Shown: positions 1 through 18,225 of the stretch, piece after piece | How positions within the stretch are numbered: the first letter of the stretch is position 1 | How the letters are laid out: the number at the start of each line of letters is the position of its first letter | NCBI RefSeq assembly: GCF_044324875.1 | Contig: NZ_CP172185.1 | Strand: one strand, 5' to 3' | DNA from: Escherichia coli | Lineage (GTDB): Bacteria; Pseudomonadota; Gammaproteobacteria; Enterobacterales; Enterobacteriaceae | DNA length: 64,000 nucleotides | Position numbers and translations under genes: made by a program | The notes under the pieces: generated by a model | What the model was told of the DNA's origin: nothing | The model's database searches: none | What the model saw: only the letters and a program-made list of their open reading frames with translations

Positions 1-111
1 GCCCCTGTATATTCCGGCTCTCTGATAATGTGGTCGGATGTGTTGATTAAATAGTTTGTGCGAAAAATGCACCTGTAACCATCAGTTAACAACGGATATA
101 CAGGGGGGACC

Positions 112-282
112 ATGAATGATAAGGGGGTGCCGTTTGATGTGCTCCTGCAAAAGCTGAATGCTGCACGCGCCGCAAGGGAACGTGAGCGCATGAGTAATAA
201 CCCTGTCCCTCCTGAATTACCTCGCCCTGAACATTTTCCGCTTGAGGATTTCATCAGGGGACGAATCCGAACAAAACGATAA
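112..282 (+). CDS. hypothetical small protein (56 aa) in mobile island; C-terminal motif FPLEDFI shared with ORF 526..720
   Basis: ATG at 112, stop TAA at 280-282, translated by hand; below the 60-aa cutoff of the ORF track; no family recognised. Confidence 0.25.
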   Translation: MNDKGVPFDVLLQKLNAARAARERERMSNNPVPPELPRPEHFPLEDFIRGRIRTKR

Positions 283-525
283 CCGCCGCCGTGATATGAG
301 GCATCACGACGCAATGCATTACAGGTGAGCACCATGAACAAATCCATATTATCCCCCACAGTTCTGGACGTAAACACAAAGCAGCGACAGATATTATTAC
401 GCGCCGTCATTAAAGCCAGACACGAGAAATTAAACCAAATCTTAAGATAAGATACGCCGCTACCGCTGTAAGTCTTCATCAGAAACAGAAAACGCCAGAG
501 CAGATGAGCACGGAGGTAACTCTTT

Positions 526-720
526 ATGAAAATAAACGAATCAGGGGAAATTACCGAAGCCAGCGTGGTACGCCAGCGGAGGCGGGAACGACGGGTACGG
601 CCCCCCGCGCCATCCGATAATTTCCCGCTTGAGCGCTTCATCAGTGAACGGCCCCGCATACGCTGGAACGGCACAACCCCATACCCCGAGGAGAGACAGA
701 CAAAAAACAAACAGCGATGA
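526..720 (+). CDS. hypothetical small protein (64 aa), paralog-like to ORF 112..282 (motif FPLERFI)
   Basis: ORF track; shares a ~15-aa C-terminal motif and similar nucleotide sequence with the 112..282 ORF. Confidence 0.3.
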   Translation: MKINESGEITEASVVRQRRRERRVRPPAPSDNFPLERFISERPRIRWNGTTPYPEERQTKNKQR

Positions 721-999
721 TGAAATCTGGAGGCCAATACCATCACCCAGCCAGTCGGGGATTGCTGGCGGGCTTCCTGTTCGCTGGTGGCCCCGATGGT
801 AATAACGCGTGGTTGTGCTGTGCTCAGGGCGATAAAACGCCAGATGTATTTATTCAGGTTGTGCGGGTCCCGCCCTTGCGGGTGTGTGGTATGATTTAAC
901 ATAGCTACCTCGATACGCTTTCTATCGTTGGTGGTTAGAAGCCCCGTTACTGCTCCAACAGTGCGGGGTTTCGTCGTTTCTGCACCTTTCATCAACAAG

Positions 1000-1051
1000 G
1001 TGTTGAACACCAATTTAAGCCTAGGTGTTAAACACGCCAAGTGTTGAACAC
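1000..1051. promoter_or_regulatory. three closely spaced 11-bp palindromes GTGTT-N-AACAC (1000-1010, 1025-1035, 1041-1051), putative operator array
   Basis: Direct reading: gtgttgaacac / gtgttaaacac / gtgttgaacac, each a perfect inverted repeat around one central base, ~50 bp upstream of the small ORF starting at 1101. Confidence 0.5.
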
Positions 1052-1100
1052 TTATTTTTTTCCTGCATACTGCATTTGTTTTTTGTAAGGGGTACACAAC

Positions 1101-1280
1101 ATGGCGACAAAAGCAGTAAACGCAAAATCACAAACAGTTGCGGCAAGGGTTCCGCATGAAGTTATGAACAATGTTGAGGCGGTAAAAATGCCTGGTGAAA
1201 GTACAGGGCAGTTTGTAACAGCAGCATTAAAGCGAGAAGTTGAATACCGCCAGCGCCGCAAGGCCAAAGAATCAGAATAA
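1101..1280 (+). CDS. hypothetical small basic protein (59 aa) in mobile island
   Basis: ATG 1101, TAA 1278-1280, hand translation MATKAVNAKSQTVAARVPHEV...; immediately downstream of the palindrome array. Confidence 0.3.
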   Translation: MATKAVNAKSQTVAARVPHEVMNNVEAVKMPGESTGQFVTAALKREVEYRQRRKAKESE

Positions 1281-1328
1281 TCACTATCAGCGCCGTGGTG
1301 TGAGGTACTGCGGCGCATTGTTTTAAAG

Positions 1329-1529
1329 GTGATAATTATGAATAACCAGGAACTACAAAATAAAGCATTATCAATTATCATGCGCCAGCGTGAGAAAACC
1401 CGCAGGGAAATAAATAAGGCATTAACCCGCACTGAAAATCTTAAAGTTCCTGATAAGTTCGCCCTTGATCCTTTTGTCGAGAAATACCCTCGGCGCTTAA
1501 AAGCAAACAAAAACCGCCCACCTGGCTGA
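1329..1529 (+). CDS. hypothetical small protein (66 aa) in mobile island
   Basis: ORF track; followed by a hairpin plus T-tract at 1621-1648. Confidence 0.3.
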   Translation: MIIMNNQELQNKALSIIMRQREKTRREINKALTRTENLKVPDKFALDPFVEKYPRRLKANKNRPPG

Positions 1530-1620
1530 CAATCCACCAGCAAGCCACCACACTGGACACATTGCCCACCAGCCAGCAAATCGCTATGATGTTCGGGCTT
1601 ATGTTTAGTGTTTTCCCATT

Positions 1621-1650
1621 GGCGACCGCCCCCGGTCGCCTTTGTTTTAT
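1621..1650 (+). terminator. putative intrinsic terminator (stem ggcgaccg / cggtcgcc, then TTTGTTTT)
   Basis: 8-bp GC-rich inverted repeat with 4-nt loop followed by a T-rich tract. Confidence 0.55.
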
Positions 1651-1667
1651 GTGTCATATACTCCCCT

Positions 1668-1877
1668 TTACGCTGCCTTGCCTGAATTAATGCGATCCCG
1701 GCTTTTAACCCATTCCATAACCTCGGACAGCAGCCAACCTACAGAACGCCCACCAAGATTACGGCGAGACGGAAAGCTCCCTTTTTTCTCCAGTTCGTAG
1801 CGTGTAGTGCGACACACTCCAGTTAACTTACGACATTCATCCTCACGGATTACGCGATCTTCATTTATTTCACGCAT
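1668..1877 (-). CDS. alpA: AlpA-family phage/island transcriptional regulator or excisionase-like protein
   Basis: Translation ...IREDECRKLTGVCRTTRYELEKKGSFPSRRNLGGRSVGWLLSEVMEWV matches the AlpA/Xis-type HTH pattern; start chosen at the internal Met (MREINED), the ORF track extends to 1964. Confidence 0.7.
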   Translation of the reverse strand: MREINEDRVIREDECRKLTGVCRTTRYELEKKGSFPSRRNLGGRSVGWLLSEVMEWVKSRDRINSGKAA

Positions 1878-2296
1878 ACAAAAACCTACATAAAAATTAC
1901 GTATATAAACTTTTCTCTTAGCTGTAGATATATGAGATCGGATATTACTTAGATTCTTTTTCACCTCTTAAATTAAAAACACAACCATGCTAAAGGCTTT
2001 GTTCGCTAAGGTTCGTAGAAGCTCGTTAGTGTTTAAAATCGTGTCACGAGTTTTTAAGCGACGCAACAAAAAATGTCGTCATTTGGCATGTCACCTGAAT
2101 TACCTCATTAAAAACAAATAGATAAACCATCAGATGTTGGAACAATCAAGAAACAGAGAATAAGAACTCAGAAGAAGACATTTCAATTTTTTTCGATAGT
2201 TGACACATATAAAGAGAAGATATTTGCAGATATTCCCCGATATTCTAAGATCTATTCACGGCTGTAATCTCTTAAAGAAAAAACAGCCGTAATTTG

Positions 2297-3535
2297 TCAA
2301 GAATTTTGGGGGTAAATTCGCGGGGTCATAACAACGATTTTTTCATCATTGTTCTGGAGAAGCTCGAGACGGTCTACCCATAGATTAAGAGCGTCACGCT
2401 TTGCATCGAGATAACGGGAGTGGTTATAGACGCGTTGCATTCCTGGCATCTGGTGGGCAGTAAGCTGTTCGACAATATGCGGATCCACGCCTAAATCGTT
2501 CAGCATGGTTGTAAATGTGTGCCGGATGTCGTGCAACGACCAGGGGGCTTGATTAATGCGTCTGTGTGCCGTTCTTCCGTACTCTGCTACGGATGATTGC
2601 CCTTTCAGTTCTCCAAGCAATAAGCCCGTGTGCCTGTTCTGCTCCACCAGCTTCATGACGAACGGCAAGATCGCTTCCGGTATTGGCCTGAATATTGCTA
2701 CCTTCGTTTTGCTGTGTTCTTTCGGCACAGTCCAGAGCATTTCTTTAAAATCCCATTCCCGAACCTCGGAGCGTCTTAGCTCAGTGGTACGGCATCCGAA
2801 GACAATCAGAAGGCGAATTAAAGCGCTGTAGTACGGCGGGAAAATTTTTTCATCCAGTGCGCGGAGTAGCTCGCCAAGCTCCTTGTTTGTTAGCACTCGC
2901 TCGCTTATTTCTGCTTTTTTTCCCACATCACCTACGACCATATCATCAAGAACGTTACTGACGGCGTAGCGACGTTTACGGCAGTACTTAAGCGCCTGTT
3001 TGCATACCTGCAACAAAAAGCCGGCTGATACCGGATTACGCTTAGCAAGCTGGTCAAAACAGGCCAGCCAGTGGCGTAGCTCGCATTTATCCAGCGGCAT
3101 AGCACCAATCTGGCTGATTATGTGCTTATTGATACGGCTTTTCAGTGATTCGTGGTCAGTGCGCTTTTCCTTCGCATACGACTCAAGCCAGTAAGTGAGC
3201 GCGTCCTTAACCGTCACGGGGGCTAACGCTTCCTGCACTGTGTGATTAAGCTCATGGCGTGGATTTTTCCCCTCCGCCAGCCAGGCGCGACACTGTGCCG
3301 CTTTTTCCCTGGCTGCTTTCAGGCTCAGATCGGGATAGTTGCCCAGTCTCAGGCGTTCCGGTGATACCTGCCTGCCAGTTCCGGCCCTGTAAGTGAAATA
3401 CCAGGTTAACAGGCCGCTGGTGGAATGTCTTACGCTAAGATTGCCACCGTCATTAAAAAAGGCGTTTTTTGTGGTTGGTGATCCGCTTAATTTTCGTAAA
3501 AGAGTGTCGCTAAGTCTATGAATTGCGCTGCTCAT
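2297..3535 (-). CDS. int: tyrosine-type site-specific recombinase/integrase (P4-like, N-terminal arm-binding domain)
   Basis: 412-aa ORF; C-terminal catalytic region with HDIRHTF ... HQMPGMQRVYNHSRY (R-H-R-Y type signature); N-terminal DUF4102-like arm-binding region. Confidence 0.9.
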   Translation of the reverse strand: MSSAIHRLSDTLLRKLSGSPTTKNAFFNDGGNLSVRHSTSGLLTWYFTYRAGTGRQVSPERLRLGNYPDLSLKAAREKAAQCRAWLAEGKNPRHELNHTVQEALAPVTVKDALTYWLESYAKEKRTDHESLKSRINKHIISQIGAMPLDKCELRHWLACFDQLAKRNPVSAGFLLQVCKQALKYCRKRRYAVSNVLDDMVVGDVGKKAEISERVLTNKELGELLRALDEKIFPPYYSALIRLLIVFGCRTTELRRSEVREWDFKEMLWTVPKEHSKTKVAIFRPIPEAILPFVMKLVEQNRHTGLLLGELKGQSSVAEYGRTAHRRINQAPWSLHDIRHTFTTMLNDLGVDPHIVEQLTAHQMPGMQRVYNHSRYLDAKRDALNLWVDRLELLQNNDEKIVVMTPRIYPQNS

Positions 3536-3938
3536 GTTTCGCGTTTCCGGTCATCAAAATTAACTACACCATTGACTACACCGTGCATCGTACAAGGGCA
3601 AACCGTGACGAACAAGAGCGAACAAGTAAAACAAAATTTTCCTTTATAATCATAGCGATGAATGCACACAAAACACTACCACGAACACCCGCGAACACTA
3701 GATGATAAATAACTATCATCTATCGTTGGCATCAGGACATCTGTCACATTCCTGTCAATAGCGTTAACTGCTTCAAATTTTTGATTCATACCTGCCCCCT
3801 GGCCCCTGTCAAATGCTTGACGGCTCGCCCTAATTCTCTAAATTGTATTTCTAGAGTTGGCGAGGTTTTGAACAGCCCCCTCTCTGACCCCGGTTTATTC
3901 CATCTTACTTGTATAAGATTTGCGAAGGATGTCGAAGC

Positions 3939-4163
3939 ATGGAAAAGGGTACTGTTAAGTGGTTCAACAATGCCAAAGGGTTTGGTTTCATCTGCCCTGA
4001 AGGCGGCGGCGAAGATATTTTCGCTCATTATTCCACCATTCAGATGGATGGTTACAGAACGCTAAAAGCTGGACAATCCGTTCAGTTTGATGTCCACCAG
4101 GGGCCAAAAGGCAATCACGCCAGTGTTATTGTGCCCGTCGAAGTAGAAGCGGCAGTCGCATAG
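3939..4163 (+). CDS. cspD: cold-shock-like protein CspD
   Basis: MEKGTVKWFNNAKGFGFI... cold-shock domain; 74 aa from the internal Met; ORF track begins at 3909. Confidence 0.95.
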   Translation: MEKGTVKWFNNAKGFGFICPEGGGEDIFAHYSTIQMDGYRTLKAGQSVQFDVHQGPKGNHASVIVPVEVEAAVA

Positions 4164-4195
4164 CTCTTCTGTCTCATTGTGTACATCCTAAAGGC

Positions 4196-4228
4196 AAAAT
4201 GCCAGCCCGATCGGCTGGCATTTTTATC
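4196..4228. terminator. bidirectional intrinsic terminator between convergent cspD and macB
   Basis: Palindrome tgccagccgatcggctggca flanked by an A-run upstream and a T-run downstream. Confidence 0.6.
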
Positions 4229-4235
4229 TCAAAAA

Positions 4236-6182
4236 TTACTCTCGTGCCAGAGCATCTACTGGATCCAGTCGTGCCGCATTTCGTGCGGGTAACCAGCCAA
4301 ATAAAATCCCGGTGACCGTCGAGCAGAGAAACGCCAGCAGCAGCGCCAACGGTGAAAAACCAATCTCCCAGCCGGGTAAGAAAAGCTGTAAGGTGAAAGC
4401 AATTAACAATGACAGTGTTATTCCCAACGCGCCACCGACCAGGCAAACCAGTACGGCTTCGATCAGGAACTGTTGCAAAACATCGCTTGCTCGCGCACCT
4501 ACAGCCATGCGAATGCCAATTTCCCGCGTCCGCTCGGTCACTGACACCAGCATAATATTCATTACACCAATACCGCCCACCACCAGCGAAATCACCGCCA
4601 CCAGCGTCAGAAACAGTTGTAAAGTACGTGTGGTCTTTTCAACGGTTTTCAAGACGCCGTCCATGTTCCAGGTAAAGAAATCCTTTTTTCCGTGGCGCAG
4701 TGAAAGTAAACGCATGAGTTGCTGTTCCGCCTCAGCGCTGTCAAATCCTTCTTTCACCCTGACAGTAATGGAGTTCAGCCACGACTGGCCCATAACTCGC
4801 CCGGACATCGTGCTGTAAGGTAGCCAGACACGCAGCACTTTACTGCTACCAAACATCGACTGTTTTTCTTCCGCCACACCAATGACTCTGGCGGGCATAT
4901 TGCCGACCAGAATCACCTCGCCAACCACATCTGCTTTATGGGGGAAAAGCTGGCGGCGAGTATTACTGTCGAGAACTACGACCTGCGCACGACCGTTCAG
5001 CTGCTCCTGATTAAAGGTGTTCCCTTCACTGAAGGTCATGCCATAGACATTAAAATAATCGCCGCTCACGCCATTGGCACTGGCAGCCACATCAACATTG
5101 TTATAACGCAGGCGCAGGTTTTGCGAGACGGCAGGTGTGGCTGAGGCGACCCACGGTTGTTTTTGGATGGCGATTAAGTCATCGTACTTCAGCGCCTGCT
5201 GATATTGCGGATCGTCATCGCCAAAATCTTTCCCGGGATAGACATCAATAGTATTCGTACCAATAGAACGAATATCCGCCAGCACCATTTGTTTGGCGGC
5301 GTCACCCACCACGACAATGGAAACCACCGACGCAATACCGATAATAATCCCCAGCATGGTCAGTAAAGTACGCATTTTATTCGCTGCCAGCGCCCGCCAT
5401 GCCATCGTCAGCGCCTCGTTAAAACCGCTGACAAACTGCCGCCAGCCAGACGCCGTGTTGACAGCAGGTTCCGTCCCGCCAGCAACATTCACTTTTTCAA
5501 TGGCGGGAGGATTGCGCACAATTTCGCTGTCGCGAATTTCGATCACCCGCTCGGCCTGAGCAGCGACCTGCGGATCGTGGGTGACGATAATCACCGTATG
5601 CCCGCGATCGCGCAGCTGATGCAGGATCGCCATCACCTCTTCGCCAGAATGGCTGTCCAGTGCGCCGGTCGGTTCATCGGCAAGAATTACCTGACCGCCG
5701 TTCATCAATGCCCGCGCGATGCTGACGCGCTGTTGCTGACCACCCGAAAGCTGTGCCGGATAATACTCTGTACGGTCTTCCAGCCCCAGTCGTTGCAGCA
5801 ACTCCTGGGCGCGAAGCAGCCGCTGTTTCCGCTCAAGACCGGCATAGACGGCGGGTACTTCAACGTTCTGCTCGGCGGTTAAATGCGAAAGCAAATGGTA
5901 ACGCTGGAAAATAAAGCCGAAATGCTCGCGGCGCAGTTGCGCCAGCGCATCGGCGTCCAGTGTGGCAACATCCTGACCGGCGACGCGATAGGTGCCGCTG
6001 GTGGCCTTATCCAGGCAGCCGAGAATATTCATCAGGGTCGATTTGCCGGAACCCGAAGCGCCGACAATCGCCACCATCTCACCAGCATAAATATCGAGGG
6101 TGATGCCCTTCAGCACCTCAACCTGCTCATCACCGGCAGGATAGCTGCGACGAATATCCTTTAATTCGAGCAAGGGCGTCAT
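4236..6182 (-). CDS. macB: macrolide export ABC transporter ATP-binding/permease protein MacB
   Basis: 648 aa; Walker [13 protein letters not shown] signature [10 protein letters not shown]-terminal FtsX-like permease segments. Confidence 0.95.
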
Positions 6183-15468: not shown

Positions 15469-17187
15469 ATGAAACAAACGGTTGCAGCTTATATCGCCAA
15501 AACACTCGAATCGGCAGGCGTGAAACGCATCTGGGGAGTCACGGGCGACTCTCTGAACGGTCTTAGCGACAGTCTTAATCGCATGGGCACCATCGAGTGG
15601 ATGTCCACCCGCCATGAAGAAGTGGCGGCGTTTGCCGCTGGCGCTGAAGCACAACTTTCAGGAGAACTGGCGGTCTGTGCCGGATCGTGCGGCCCCGGAA
15701 ACCTGCACTTAATCAACGGCCTGTTCGATTGTCACCGCAATCACGTTCCGGTACTGGCGATTGCCGCTCATATTCCCTCCAGCGAAATTGGCAGCGGCTA
15801 TTTCCAGGAAACCCACCCACAAGAGCTATTCCGCGAATGTAGCCACTATTGCGAGCTGGTTTCCAGCCCGGAGCAAATCCCACAAGTGCTGGCGATTGCC
15901 ATGCGCAAAGCGGTGCTAAACCGTGGCGTTTCCGTTGTCGTGTTACCGGGCGACGTGGCGTTAAAACCTGCGCCAGAAGGGGCAACCTCGCACTGGTATC
16001 ATGCGCCACAGCCAGTCGTGACGCCGGAAGAAGAAGAGTTACGCAAACTGGCGCAACTGCTGCGTTATTCCAGCAATATCGCCCTGATGTGTGGCAGCGG
16101 CTGCGCGGGGGCGCATAAAGAGTTAGTTGAGTTTGCCGGGAAAATTAAAGCGCCTATTGTTCATGCCCTGCGCGGTAAAGAACATGTCGAATACGATAAT
16201 CCGTATGATGTCGGAATGACGGGATTAATTGGCTTCTCGTCAGGTTTCCATACCATGATGAACGCCGACACGTTAGTGCTACTCGGTACTCAGTTCCCCT
16301 ACCGCGCCTTCTACCCGACCGATGCCAAAATCATTCAGATTGATATCAACCCAGCCAGCATCGGCGCTCACAGCAAGGTGGATATGGCACTGGTCGGCGA
16401 TATCAAGTCGACTCTGCGTGCATTGCTGCCATTGGTGGAAGAAAAAGCCGATCGCAAGTTTCTGGATAAAGCGCTGGAAGATTACCGCGACGCCCGCAAA
16501 GGGCTGGACGATTTAGCTAAACCGAGCGAGAAAGCCATTCACCCGCAATATCTGGCGCAGCAAATTAGTCATTTTGCCGCCGATGACGCCATCTTTACCT
16601 GTGACGTTGGTACGCCAACGGTGTGGGCGGCACGTTATCTGAAAATGAACGGCAAGCGTCGTCTGTTAGGTTCGTTTAACCACGGTTCGATGGCTAACGC
16701 CATGCCGCAGGCGTTGGGTGCGCAGGCAACCGAGCCGGAACGTCAGGTGGTCGCCATGTGCGGCGATGGCGGTTTTAGCATGTTGATGGGCGATTTCCTC
16801 TCAGTAGTGCAGATGAAACTGCCGGTGAAAATTATCGTCTTTAATAACAGCGTGCTGGGCTTTGTGGCGATGGAGATGAAAGCCGGAGGCTACCTGACAG
16901 ACGGTACTGAGCTGCACGACACCAACTTTGCCCGCATTGCCGAAGCGTGCGGAATTACGGGTATTCGCGTGGAAAAAGCCTCTGAAGTCGATGAAGCCCT
17001 GCAACGCGCCTTTTCCATCGACGGTCCGGTGCTGGTGGATGTGGTGGTCGCCAAAGAAGAATTAGCCATTCCACCGCAGATCAAACTCGAACAGGCCAAA
17101 GGTTTCAGCCTGTATATGCTGCGCGCAATCATCAGCGGACGCGGCGATGAAGTGATCGAACTGGCGAAAACAAACTGGCTAAGGTAA
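15469..17187 (+). CDS. poxB: pyruvate dehydrogenase (ubiquinone), pyruvate oxidase PoxB
   Basis: 572 aa; thiamine-diphosphate enzyme with GDGGF motif. Confidence 0.95.
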
Positions 17188-17223
17188 AAAGGGTGGCATT
17201 TCCCGTCATAATAAGGACATGCC

Positions 17224-18225
17224 ATGATTGATTTACGCAGTGATACCGTTACCCGACCGAGCCGCGCCATGCTCGAAGCGATGATGGCCGCCCCGGTTGG
17301 GGACGACGTTTACGGAGACGACCCTACCGTTAATGCTCTGCAGGACTATGCAGCAGAGCTTTCCGGTAAAGAAGCCGCCATTTTTCTGCCTACCGGCACT
17401 CAGGCCAACCTGGTCGCTCTGCTCAGTCACTGTGAACGCGGCGAAGAGTATATTGTCGGTCAGGCCGCGCATAACTATCTGTTTGAAGCCGGTGGCGCGG
17501 CGGTGCTGGGCAGTATTCAACCGCAACCCATCGACGCGGCTGCCGACGGCACGCTACCGCTGGATAAAGTGGCGATGAAAATCAAACCCGACGATATCCA
17601 TTTCGCCCGCACCAAATTACTCAGTCTGGAAAACACCCACAACGGCAAAGTGCTGCCGCGGGAATACCTGAAAGAAGCATGGGAATTTACTCGCGAGCGC
17701 AATCTGGCGCTGCATGTTGACGGTGCGCGCATCTTTAATGCCGTGGTGGCTTACGGCTGCGAACTGAAAGAGATCACGCAATATTGTGATTCGTTCACCA
17801 TTTGCCTGTCGAAAGGACTTGGGACGCCAGTCGGCTCGTTACTCGCCGGTAATCGTGATTACATTAAACGCGCCATCCGCTGGCGGAAAATGACCGGTGG
17901 CGGGATGCGCCAGTCCGGCATTCTGGCTGCCGCCGGGATGTATGCCCTGAAAAATAACGTCGCGCGCTTACAGGAAGACCACGACAACGCCGACTGGATG
18001 GCGGAGCAGTTGCGTGAAGCAGGCGCGGATGTGATGCGTCAGGACACCAATATGCTGTTTGTTCGCGTCGGGGAAGAAAATGCTGCCGCGTTAGGCGAAT
18101 ACATGAAAGCGAGAAACGTGCTGATTAACGCCTCGCCGATTGTCCGCCTGGTGACTCATCTTGACGTCTCGCGTGCACAACTGGCGGAAGTCGCCGCCCA
18201 CTGGCGCGCATTCCTGGCGCGTTAA
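17224..18225 (+). CDS. ltaE: low-specificity L-threonine aldolase
   Basis: 333 aa; [13 protein letters not shown]... PLP-dependent aldolase. Confidence 0.95.

Follow-up and report, generated by a model that had tools for sequence, protein, structure and literature searches.

The three 11-bp palindromes that lie between positions 1000 and 1051 of a 64,000-nucleotide stretch of Escherichia coli DNA (contig NZ_CP172185.1 of assembly GCF_044324875.1; the whole stretch is referred to below as the window) are most likely operators of the small YlcI-family protein encoded beside them, as judged by comparison with related loci. The sites, called O1, O2 and O3, belong to a satellite resembling the phage-inducible chromosomal islands (PICIs), in which they overlie two predicted back-to-back promoters, a leftward one for an Icd/Kil-like (cell division inhibitor-like) gene and replication genes and a rightward one for ylcI itself (Table 1). 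From the array, its conservation and geometry, its co-variation with the adjacent protein and the predicted ribbon-helix-helix (RHH) fold of that protein we infer, with a probability of roughly two in three, that YlcI dimers occupy O1 and O2, block the leftward promoter, which resembles the PLE promoter of satellite P4, and silence both the toxic Icd/Kil-like gene and the replication genes.

The array itself is real. The pattern GTGTTNAACAC has three exact matches on the two strands of the 64 kb, all inside 1000-1051, where 0.02 would be expected from 100 dinucleotide-preserving shuffles, none of which reached three, and chance is rejected on this count. With two mismatches allowed 24 matches were found against an expected 26, which is background, and only the exact array stands out. 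The sites are centred at 1005, 1030 and 1046. An earlier sequence-only reading of the window had described three 11-bp palindromes spaced by 25 and 16 bp, which the sequence bears out; there are no exact matches outside the array in the window. That reading had also put the array just upstream of the open reading frame at 1101..1280. The frame (59 amino acids) exists, but a simple upstream placement does not describe the array, which occupies a divergent promoter region; the leftward operon had been missed because the edge of the window hid the leftward unit. The array also lies inside a long open frame of the - strand, to which we return below.

Each site coincides with a promoter element. 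O1 begins 1-2 nt downstream of the -10 of the leftward promoter and spans its predicted start (~1005), O2 falls within the spacer of the same promoter and abuts its -35, and O3 contains the -35 of the rightward promoter and is just upstream of the leftward -35. A predicted RHH dimer at O2, in the spacer, together with one at O1, on the start site, would be expected to block RNA polymerase. The promoters are matches to the sigma-70 consensus only (8-10 of 12 positions), and the evidence for them is their constant position across loci rather than their scores. The leftward geometry, TTGACG and TAnnnT separated by 17/18 bp at -62..-67 and -85..-91 relative to the ylcI ATG, was the best match in 26 of the 27 related loci scored as well as in the window, and a rightward -10 of the form (T/C)ATA(C/T)T is kept at about -36..-30 in most scored loci. 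Almost all fetched loci share one layout, which runs, leftmost first, from the start of the Icd-like gene (- strand) through a hairpin, site 1 at about -102, the leftward -10 at -85..-90, site 2 at -77, the leftward -35 TTGACG at -62..-67 and the rightward -10 at -36..-31 to site 3 at -32. The class to which the window belongs has its third copy at -61 (O3), where TTGAAC within the copy forms the rightward -35, and the copy at -32 has decayed here (CATACTGCATTTG). The -61 copy is also present in loci L006, L044, L031 and L032, and other classes have their third copy right after the rightward -10 (-32).

The comparison drew on 29 loci fetched from Enterobacterales genomes, together with six taken from complete E. 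coli genomes and seven taken from other assemblies, with YlcI homologues of 37 to 100% identity. In about 40 related loci 11-mers occupy the positions -102, -77 and -32 or -61. The -102 site was found in about 35 related loci and the equivalent of the -77 site is likewise present in relatives. The 11-mers are specific to the locus and the same within a locus, and across classes they have in common only xTG-N5-CAx. Within a class the site columns are 93% and 98% identical across genera, compared with 62-63% for other intergenic columns, and O1 is invariant in the class-A alignment. No extra copies with up to one mismatch were found in the 26 loci checked, within the 3-6 kb fetched; one extra match with one mismatch lies 12 kb away in the 36 kb of L001, a record near-identical to the window (99.9% identical overall). 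The suggestion of the earlier reading that this is an operator array at an island regulatory switch is supported by these fixed positions, by the conservation and concerted change of the sites and by their co-variation with the adjacent protein.

This co-variation involves residues 11-16, in the predicted beta-strand of YlcI. The strand residues QT[VLI]AAR are accompanied by the site GTGTTGAACAC in E. coli, Edwardsiella, Pectobacterium, Kosakonia and Klebsiella, and [KR]KLEAR by GTGTCAGCCAC in E. coli, Pectobacterium, Xenorhabdus and Salmonella. The remaining pairs are QKLQ[AT]R with GTGGA[CT]TCCAC (L011, L022), KRFDVR with GTGTCGGACAC (L016, L039), QSLKSR with GTGTGGYCCAC (L007, L043), QKMSAR with CTGGCACCCAG (L020, L023, L025) and QS[LV]TAR with GTGTAAGACAC (L034, L035). 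For classes seen more than once the rule linking residues to sites holds across different genera. Four operator sequences were predicted beforehand from the protein sequence alone and all four were found at the predicted positions. Approximately 550 of 5,426 complete E. coli genomes carry the specificity class of the window (at a query coverage of at least 80%), and other classes occur in Salmonella, Klebsiella, Pectobacterium, Xenorhabdus and Proteus.

Among E. coli islands, three of which were aligned, the operators and the N-terminal two-thirds of ylcI have been swapped as one cassette. Alignment of the window with L035 shows near identity as far as the opening bases of O1. From there the two differ over the operators and the first ~48 codons of ylcI, and they come together again in the C-terminal tail (from codon ~49) and the terminator; H40 behaves likewise. 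Operators and the DNA-binding part of the gene may therefore be viewed as an exchangeable specificity, or ‘immunity’, cassette, situated where PLE lies in P4.

The earlier reading could assign the presumed repressor to no family, and that gap can now be filled with a proposal, namely a protein of the YlcI/YnfO family with a predicted RHH fold. The protein also matches PHROG 949 (‘unknown function’), and its gene is preceded at 8 nt by the Shine-Dalgarno sequence AAGGGG and would be monocistronic, since a terminator-like hairpin follows it directly. The ylcI frame is under selection at the protein level: all 14 changes between the window and the Edwardsiella locus L002 fall at codon position 3, and codon position 2 is the most conserved throughout. 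A - strand open reading frame opposite ylcI was considered as a real gene and rejected, the substitution pattern favouring the ylcI frame. The YlcI sequence has an RHH pattern, and an AlphaFold2 (AF2) model of a glycine-serine-linked dimer placed a strand at residues 10-18 and helices at 19-28 and 35-59 in each half (pLDDT 86-91 in the folded part). The top PDB matches returned by Foldseek with this dimer model were chains of 104-120 amino acids from the F relaxosome (probability 0.80-0.98, TM-score 0.5-0.68), which we take to be TraY, a natural tandem RHH protein. The beta-alpha-alpha topology and intertwined dimer that characterise the fold were obtained in silico, and a sequence match to a curated RHH family was not obtained. 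One source names the homologue P0070 ‘CopG-like RHH’. On the strength of the modelling YlcI probably has the RHH fold. We found no publication that gives the YlcI/YnfO family a function, nor any that connects an RHH protein with PICIs or P4-like satellites.

A number of observations weigh against operators read by an RHH protein. Loci L024 and L026 share the strand KSQKIQAR yet their sites differ at three inner positions, and L008 and L020 share residues 12 and 14 yet also have different sites. The operators lie less than 100 bp from the co-varying codons, and linkage and shared ancestry inflate the co-variation. Centre spacings of 25 and 16 bp are non-integral numbers of helical turns, so that the sites are not on one face of the helix, and the promoters of the window score only 8 and 7.5 and were missed by a stricter scan with a cut-off of 9 of 12. 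With regard to the fold, the RHH assignment rests on structure prediction with an artificial linker, and the Foldseek E-values for the dimer model were only 0.2-0.9. The AF2 monomer has two helices and an unpaired N-terminus, and Foldseek found nothing with it. Pfam gave no family at E <= 0.001 for the protein or any of its 26 homologues, and a PDB sequence profile search gave chance matches only. Alignment to Arc by hhalign had a probability of 3.6%, which is weak; its register puts the invariant R16 on R13 of Arc, a residue that contacts DNA.

The alternative that fares best is that the sites are operators of another protein, be it AlpA, a regulator from the helper phage by which the island is induced or a host factor, with YlcI as a linked passenger. 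Tight linkage alone could yield co-variation of the sites with ylcI, and yet we consider this improbable. AlpA, which the sequence-only reading had suggested for binding assays along with the small proteins of the island, does not track the site class, being 26-35% identical between loci with the same sites and 51-57% identical between loci with different ones. When L002 is compared with the window the YlcI proteins are 100% identical and the operators are identical; AlpA is 26%, the integrase 20% and the Icd-like protein 52% identical. AlpA, the integrase, the Icd-like protein and the product of orf66 were all rejected as the binder on the ground that none of them follows site class. A single host factor is excluded by the presence of at least three site classes within E. 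coli alone, and the swapped cassette codes for nothing besides the DNA-binding part of ylcI. As to a helper phage, neither a megablast search with window positions 1-3600 nor a tblastn search with the 59-aa protein gave a match in 50,697 phage records, from which the YlcI subfamily is absent, indicating that the module does not come from any sequenced phage; a helper-encoded binder of another family is still conceivable.

Rather less probable is the idea that ylcI and its operators are the autoregulated antitoxin half of a toxin-antitoxin pair, with the Icd/Kil-like division inhibitor or the product of orf66 as the toxin and no life-cycle switch involved. Many RHH proteins are autoregulating antitoxins. 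Proteins of the Icd/Kil type are toxic when expressed, as in the case of P4 kil (PMC10111431). No conserved co-directional partner gene accompanies ylcI: orf66 occurs in this lineage only and in Xenorhabdus there is no room for one. The left neighbour varies, being Icd-like, KilA-N or Ash, while its promoter also drives replication genes.

It is very unlikely that the repeats act as RNA, either by pairing within a leader and so bringing about termination, in the manner of seqA, seqB and seqC of P4 or the a and b sequences of P1 c4, or as small hairpins. The region corresponds in position to the immunity leader of P4, and the palindromes can form 5-bp hairpins, one of which was flagged as terminator-like on the - strand. 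In most relatives, however, the 11-mers are asymmetric repeats in one orientation, with symmetry confined to xTG...CAx, and no complementary copy was found in any locus checked, which leaves neither pairing nor hairpins possible; palindromy is peculiar to the class of the window and is not conserved. Site 1 of L035 has the opposite orientation to sites 2 and 3 of that locus. Asymmetric and inverted sites suit a dimer that reads a pseudo-symmetric site, but not RNA hairpins or pairing between RNAs. Of the three sites, moreover, two lie upstream of the predicted leftward start. P4 itself gives matches to the C4 and isrK families of Rfam, corresponding to its CI RNA and seqA; an Rfam scan of window positions 1-4000 gave nothing even at E <= 1, whereby a C4/CI-type RNA was rejected as an explanation in the window, and neither family was found at gathering score in 25 of 26 YlcI loci. 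The sole exception, L041, combines ylcI and operators with isrK and C4 RNAs just downstream of the leftward promoter. Their position supports equating this promoter with PLE.

That the repeats are iterons of a replication origin bound by a primase/helicase, as the type I repeats of P4 ori and crr (TGTTCACC / GGTGAACA, superficially similar to GGTGTTGAACACC) are bound by the alpha protein, is hardly credible even though P4 ori is also upstream of its left operon, given that the same operators accompany unrelated replication proteins (primase-family in L001 and L032, DUF927 in L031), that the copies number only three and coincide exactly with promoter elements, and that the origin of PICIs has been reported next to the 3' end of pri-rep (PMC6092414), i.e. 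away from the array.

Repression by the YlcI dimer would keep the replication operon of the satellite (Icd/Kil-like gene, DUF4222, primase and single-stranded DNA-binding protein, SSB) silent, and some further steps can be proposed that are distinctly more tentative. O3, lying over the -35 of the ylcI promoter, would provide autoregulation and limit synthesis of the protein, a task that would fall in other classes to the copy just after the rightward -10 (-32). Upon induction by a helper, transcription that depends on AlpA would arrive from upstream and, being translated, would read a long frame, here termed eta-like after its P4 counterpart, antisense across ylcI. As this frame begins just after the alpA stop, such read-through could override repression, and it may both bypass and extinguish it. 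The scheme as a whole, with autoregulation and AlpA override included, is one to which we would give less than even odds. The same holds for its broadest form, in which a YlcI-like RHH protein would be the missing master repressor, or immunity determinant, of many Gram-negative PICI-like satellites, with at least nine heteroimmune classes defined by a handful of beta-strand residues and the 11-bp operators that match them, AlpA-driven translated read-through would silence the antisense-embedded ylcI and flip the island to replication, and a + strand RNA ending at 969-981 would act as a second lock on the Icd/Kil-like gene.

The frame on which the override would depend is found well beyond the window. 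In 25 of 29 related loci a single - strand frame without stop codons spans the module. It is already open well downstream of the ylcI ATG, in several loci close to the stop codon of alpA, and it crosses all of ylcI, to which it is antisense, the operators and the hairpin and runs into the icd-like gene. The chance of the minimum of 127 open codons is ~0.00035 per locus. The eta/kil region of P4, used as a control, shows the same long open frame. In L001 the frame extends from the alpA stop to the end of icd (15670-17658, 662 codons), giving the nested eta/kil arrangement of the P4 type, while in the window itself it is split between 1052-1657 and 1-1127 of the - strand. The cause is a run at 1055-1061, which is T7 in the window and L032 and T8 in L001, L031 and L002: with T7 the eta-like frame is broken by a TAA at 1054..1052, with T8 (L001) it is continuous with the icd frame. 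On the mRNA this places an A7/A8 run directly before the stop. The difference may reflect an error in sequencing, phase variation or a slippage site. The eta-like peptide looks unstructured, and selection may have been for a translatable frame rather than for its product. RefSeq annotates L001 15670-17103 as a 477-aa ‘host cell division inhibitor Icd-like protein’ of which only ~45 residues match the Icd-like model; this call is probably an annotation artefact because the rest is open eta-like frame.

The Icd/Kil-like gene is the first of the leftward operon, and its frame continues leftwards without a stop in the window, the operon passing the window edge. Relatives have homologous small genes in the same place, and P4 Kil is recognisably Icd-like with the same motifs. 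About 30 bp to the left of O1 is a conserved hairpin (938-972), which on the + strand forms 14 pairs (-23.05 kcal/mol), a good many of them G-U and 12 showing compensatory changes, as against nine pairs with C-A mismatches (-11.0 kcal/mol) on the - strand. With the T-rich tract that follows, this suggests an intrinsic terminator of a rightward RNA antisense to the leader and ribosome-binding site of icd. Three smaller observations concern promoter sequences in this region. In the window and L001 the leftward -35 is TTGGCG, compared with TTGACG in most relatives, a one-base weakening of the operator-controlled promoter. A possible extended -10 (TGgTATGAT) is present at 887-895. In relatives a TAnnnT hexamer precedes the icd start by 4-12 nt, although conserved codons overlap it.

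Table 1. Positions in the window of the features discussed in the text
Feature	Position	Strand	Details
Icd/Kil-like coding region	717..902	-	ATG 902..900; NCBIfam NF033153, E = 1e-14; phrog_6196
Conserved hairpin (938-972) and T-rich tract (969-981)	938..981	+	intrinsic-terminator-like
O1	1000..1010		GTGTTGAACAC; part of the 13-bp palindrome GGTGTTGAACACC, 999-1011
Predicted leftward sigma-70 promoter (PLE analogue)	1012..1040	-	-35 TTGGCG 1040..1035, 17-bp spacer, -10 TAAATT 1017..1012
O2	1025..1035		GTGTTAAACAC
O3	1041..1051		GTGTTGAACAC
Predicted rightward ylcI promoter	1044..1071	+	-35 TTGAAC 1044-1049, 16-bp spacer, -10 CATACT 1066-1071
Upstream part of eta-like open frame	1052..1657	-	starts 10 nt after alpA stop; antisense through orf66 and ylcI
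ylcI-like gene	1101..1280	+	59 aa; NCBIfam NF041551 (YlcI_YnfO_N), E = 2e-16; proposed binder of O1-O3
Terminator-like hairpin directly after ylcI	1290..1316	+	sequence conserved in other E. coli islands
orf66	1338..1529	+	63-66 aa, basic
alpA-like gene (helix-turn-helix/excisionase family)	1668..1877	-	by annotation; phrog_2790
Tyrosine integrase of the island	2297..3535	-	adjoins yljB and cspD

At its left end the window takes in the right end of an island of ~10 kb inserted between cspD/yljB and clpS of E. coli. Leftwards from cspD the order is integrase, AlpA-type helix-turn-helix (HTH) gene, two small + strand genes (orf66 and the 59-aa frame), the palindromes and the - strand operon. In L001 the operon continues beyond the Icd-like gene with DUF4222, primase, SSB, PerC, a ProQ/FinO-family protein and the small terminase subunit (terS), so that the order from int and alpA to terS is contained within ~10 kb between clpS and cspD. 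This order has been described for Gram-negative PICIs (PMC6092414; PMC10111431), and it agrees with the four zones set out in PMC10111431. The island at cspD-clpS is PICI-like by its gene order, the type being defined by int, alpA, a variable zone, primase or replication genes and a few late phage genes in about 10-20 kb, with neither lysis nor tail genes. A tRNA scan found no tRNA gene in the window, indicating that the island is not inserted at one. A distant paralogue, the ylcI of E. coli K-12, adjoins nohD in the DLP12 prophage; a single reading of its upstream region, with no search for repeats, showed no comparable divergent-promoter arrangement.

Several further features of the island and its surroundings were noted. 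Among all loci compared orf66 is found in this lineage only, where it stands between terminator-like hairpins at 1290-1316 and 1621-1640, and it gives the impression of having been inserted recently between ylcI and alpA. Window positions 1-729 are absent from most other E. coli islands at the same site, similarity beginning at ~729-736. The + strand open reading frames at 112-282 and 526-720 share the motif FPLE(D/R)FI after a Pro-/Arg-rich stretch, and neither has a family match in NCBIfam or PHROGs. The Rfam int-alpA RNA (RF02996) was found between int and alpA in L003 (5853-5921), L008 (5966-6038) and L020 (5519-5587), and gave no match in window positions 1880-2296 even at E <= 1. In the L001 record, outside the window, a second integrase island (HTH, YfjI family, integrase) lies at 2455-5716 on the far side of clpA, and in that strain both flanks of clpS-clpA are occupied. 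The ProQ/FinO-family RNA-binding protein of the first island, also outside the window, is encoded at L001 11476-12060; that it may partner the putative antisense RNA as FinO does FinP is pure conjecture by analogy.

In Gram-negative PICIs only an activator, AlpA, is known (PMC6092414; PMC11773190), and a global repressor was described in 2018 as ‘unclear’ (PMC6092414). The locus offers a concrete repressor candidate for such islands, together with the exact placement of its sites on the predicted replication promoter. The natural pairs of protein and operator provide, ready made, a recognition code for a minimal RHH domain and are a possible source of orthogonal repressors.

Of the systems that invite comparison, the immI region of phage P22, in which Mnt and Arc act at the divergent promoters Pant and Pmnt and an antisense RNA, sar, is made, has in common with the locus a small RHH repressor gene divergent from the repressed operon and operators that overlap back-to-back promoters, with autoregulation by the repressor, which is here proposed. 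A short antisense RNA directed against the ribosome-binding site of the first gene may likewise exist here, to judge from the terminator at 938-981. No sequence relationship is detectable beyond the fold register with Arc, and there are other differences: three separate 11-bp sites are found here and one operator of 17 or 21 bp in P22, the operon consists here of satellite Icd/Kil-like and replication genes and in P22 of an antirepressor, and the repressor gene here is embedded antisense in a long open frame. The imm cassettes of lambdoid phages resemble the locus in that repressor specificity and operators are exchanged together and in the occurrence of several heteroimmune classes in one host species, but the present cassette is of ~250 bp, involves a single 59-aa RHH protein and has breakpoints inside the repressor gene. 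The plasmid RHH regulators omega of pSM19035, CopG and ParG also read short repeat units (7-13 bp), direct or inverted, with which the inverted site 1 of L035 may be compared; their units are contiguous, whereas those described here are 5-14 bp apart and lie on individual promoter elements.

Among satellites there are parallels with the left operon of P4, where the order is vis, the eta frame ending in kil, an internal PLE, seqA (isrK), CI (C4) and the primase operon (PMC10111431). Both have an alpA homologue (vis in P4), a long frame that starts from its stop and ends in a Kil/Icd-like peptide, an internal promoter and a primase operon. They differ in that P4 immunity is due to RNA, whereas the islands have on the opposite strand a gene for a protein, with its operators, L041 having both. 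The Stl/Rpr master repressors of the Staphylococcus aureus pathogenicity islands (SaPIs) and other Gram-positive PICIs are likewise encoded by the satellite and act at divergent promoters between the integration and replication modules, where they hold the island quiescent (PMC6092414), although Stl proteins are larger helix-turn-helix proteins that are relieved by proteins of the helper phage. Set against these systems, what is likely to be new is an RHH repressor-operator switch that PICI-like satellites carry, as a swappable unit of immunity, within an eta/kil scaffold of the P4 type, a scaffold that can accommodate a lock made of protein in place of the CI RNA or alongside it.

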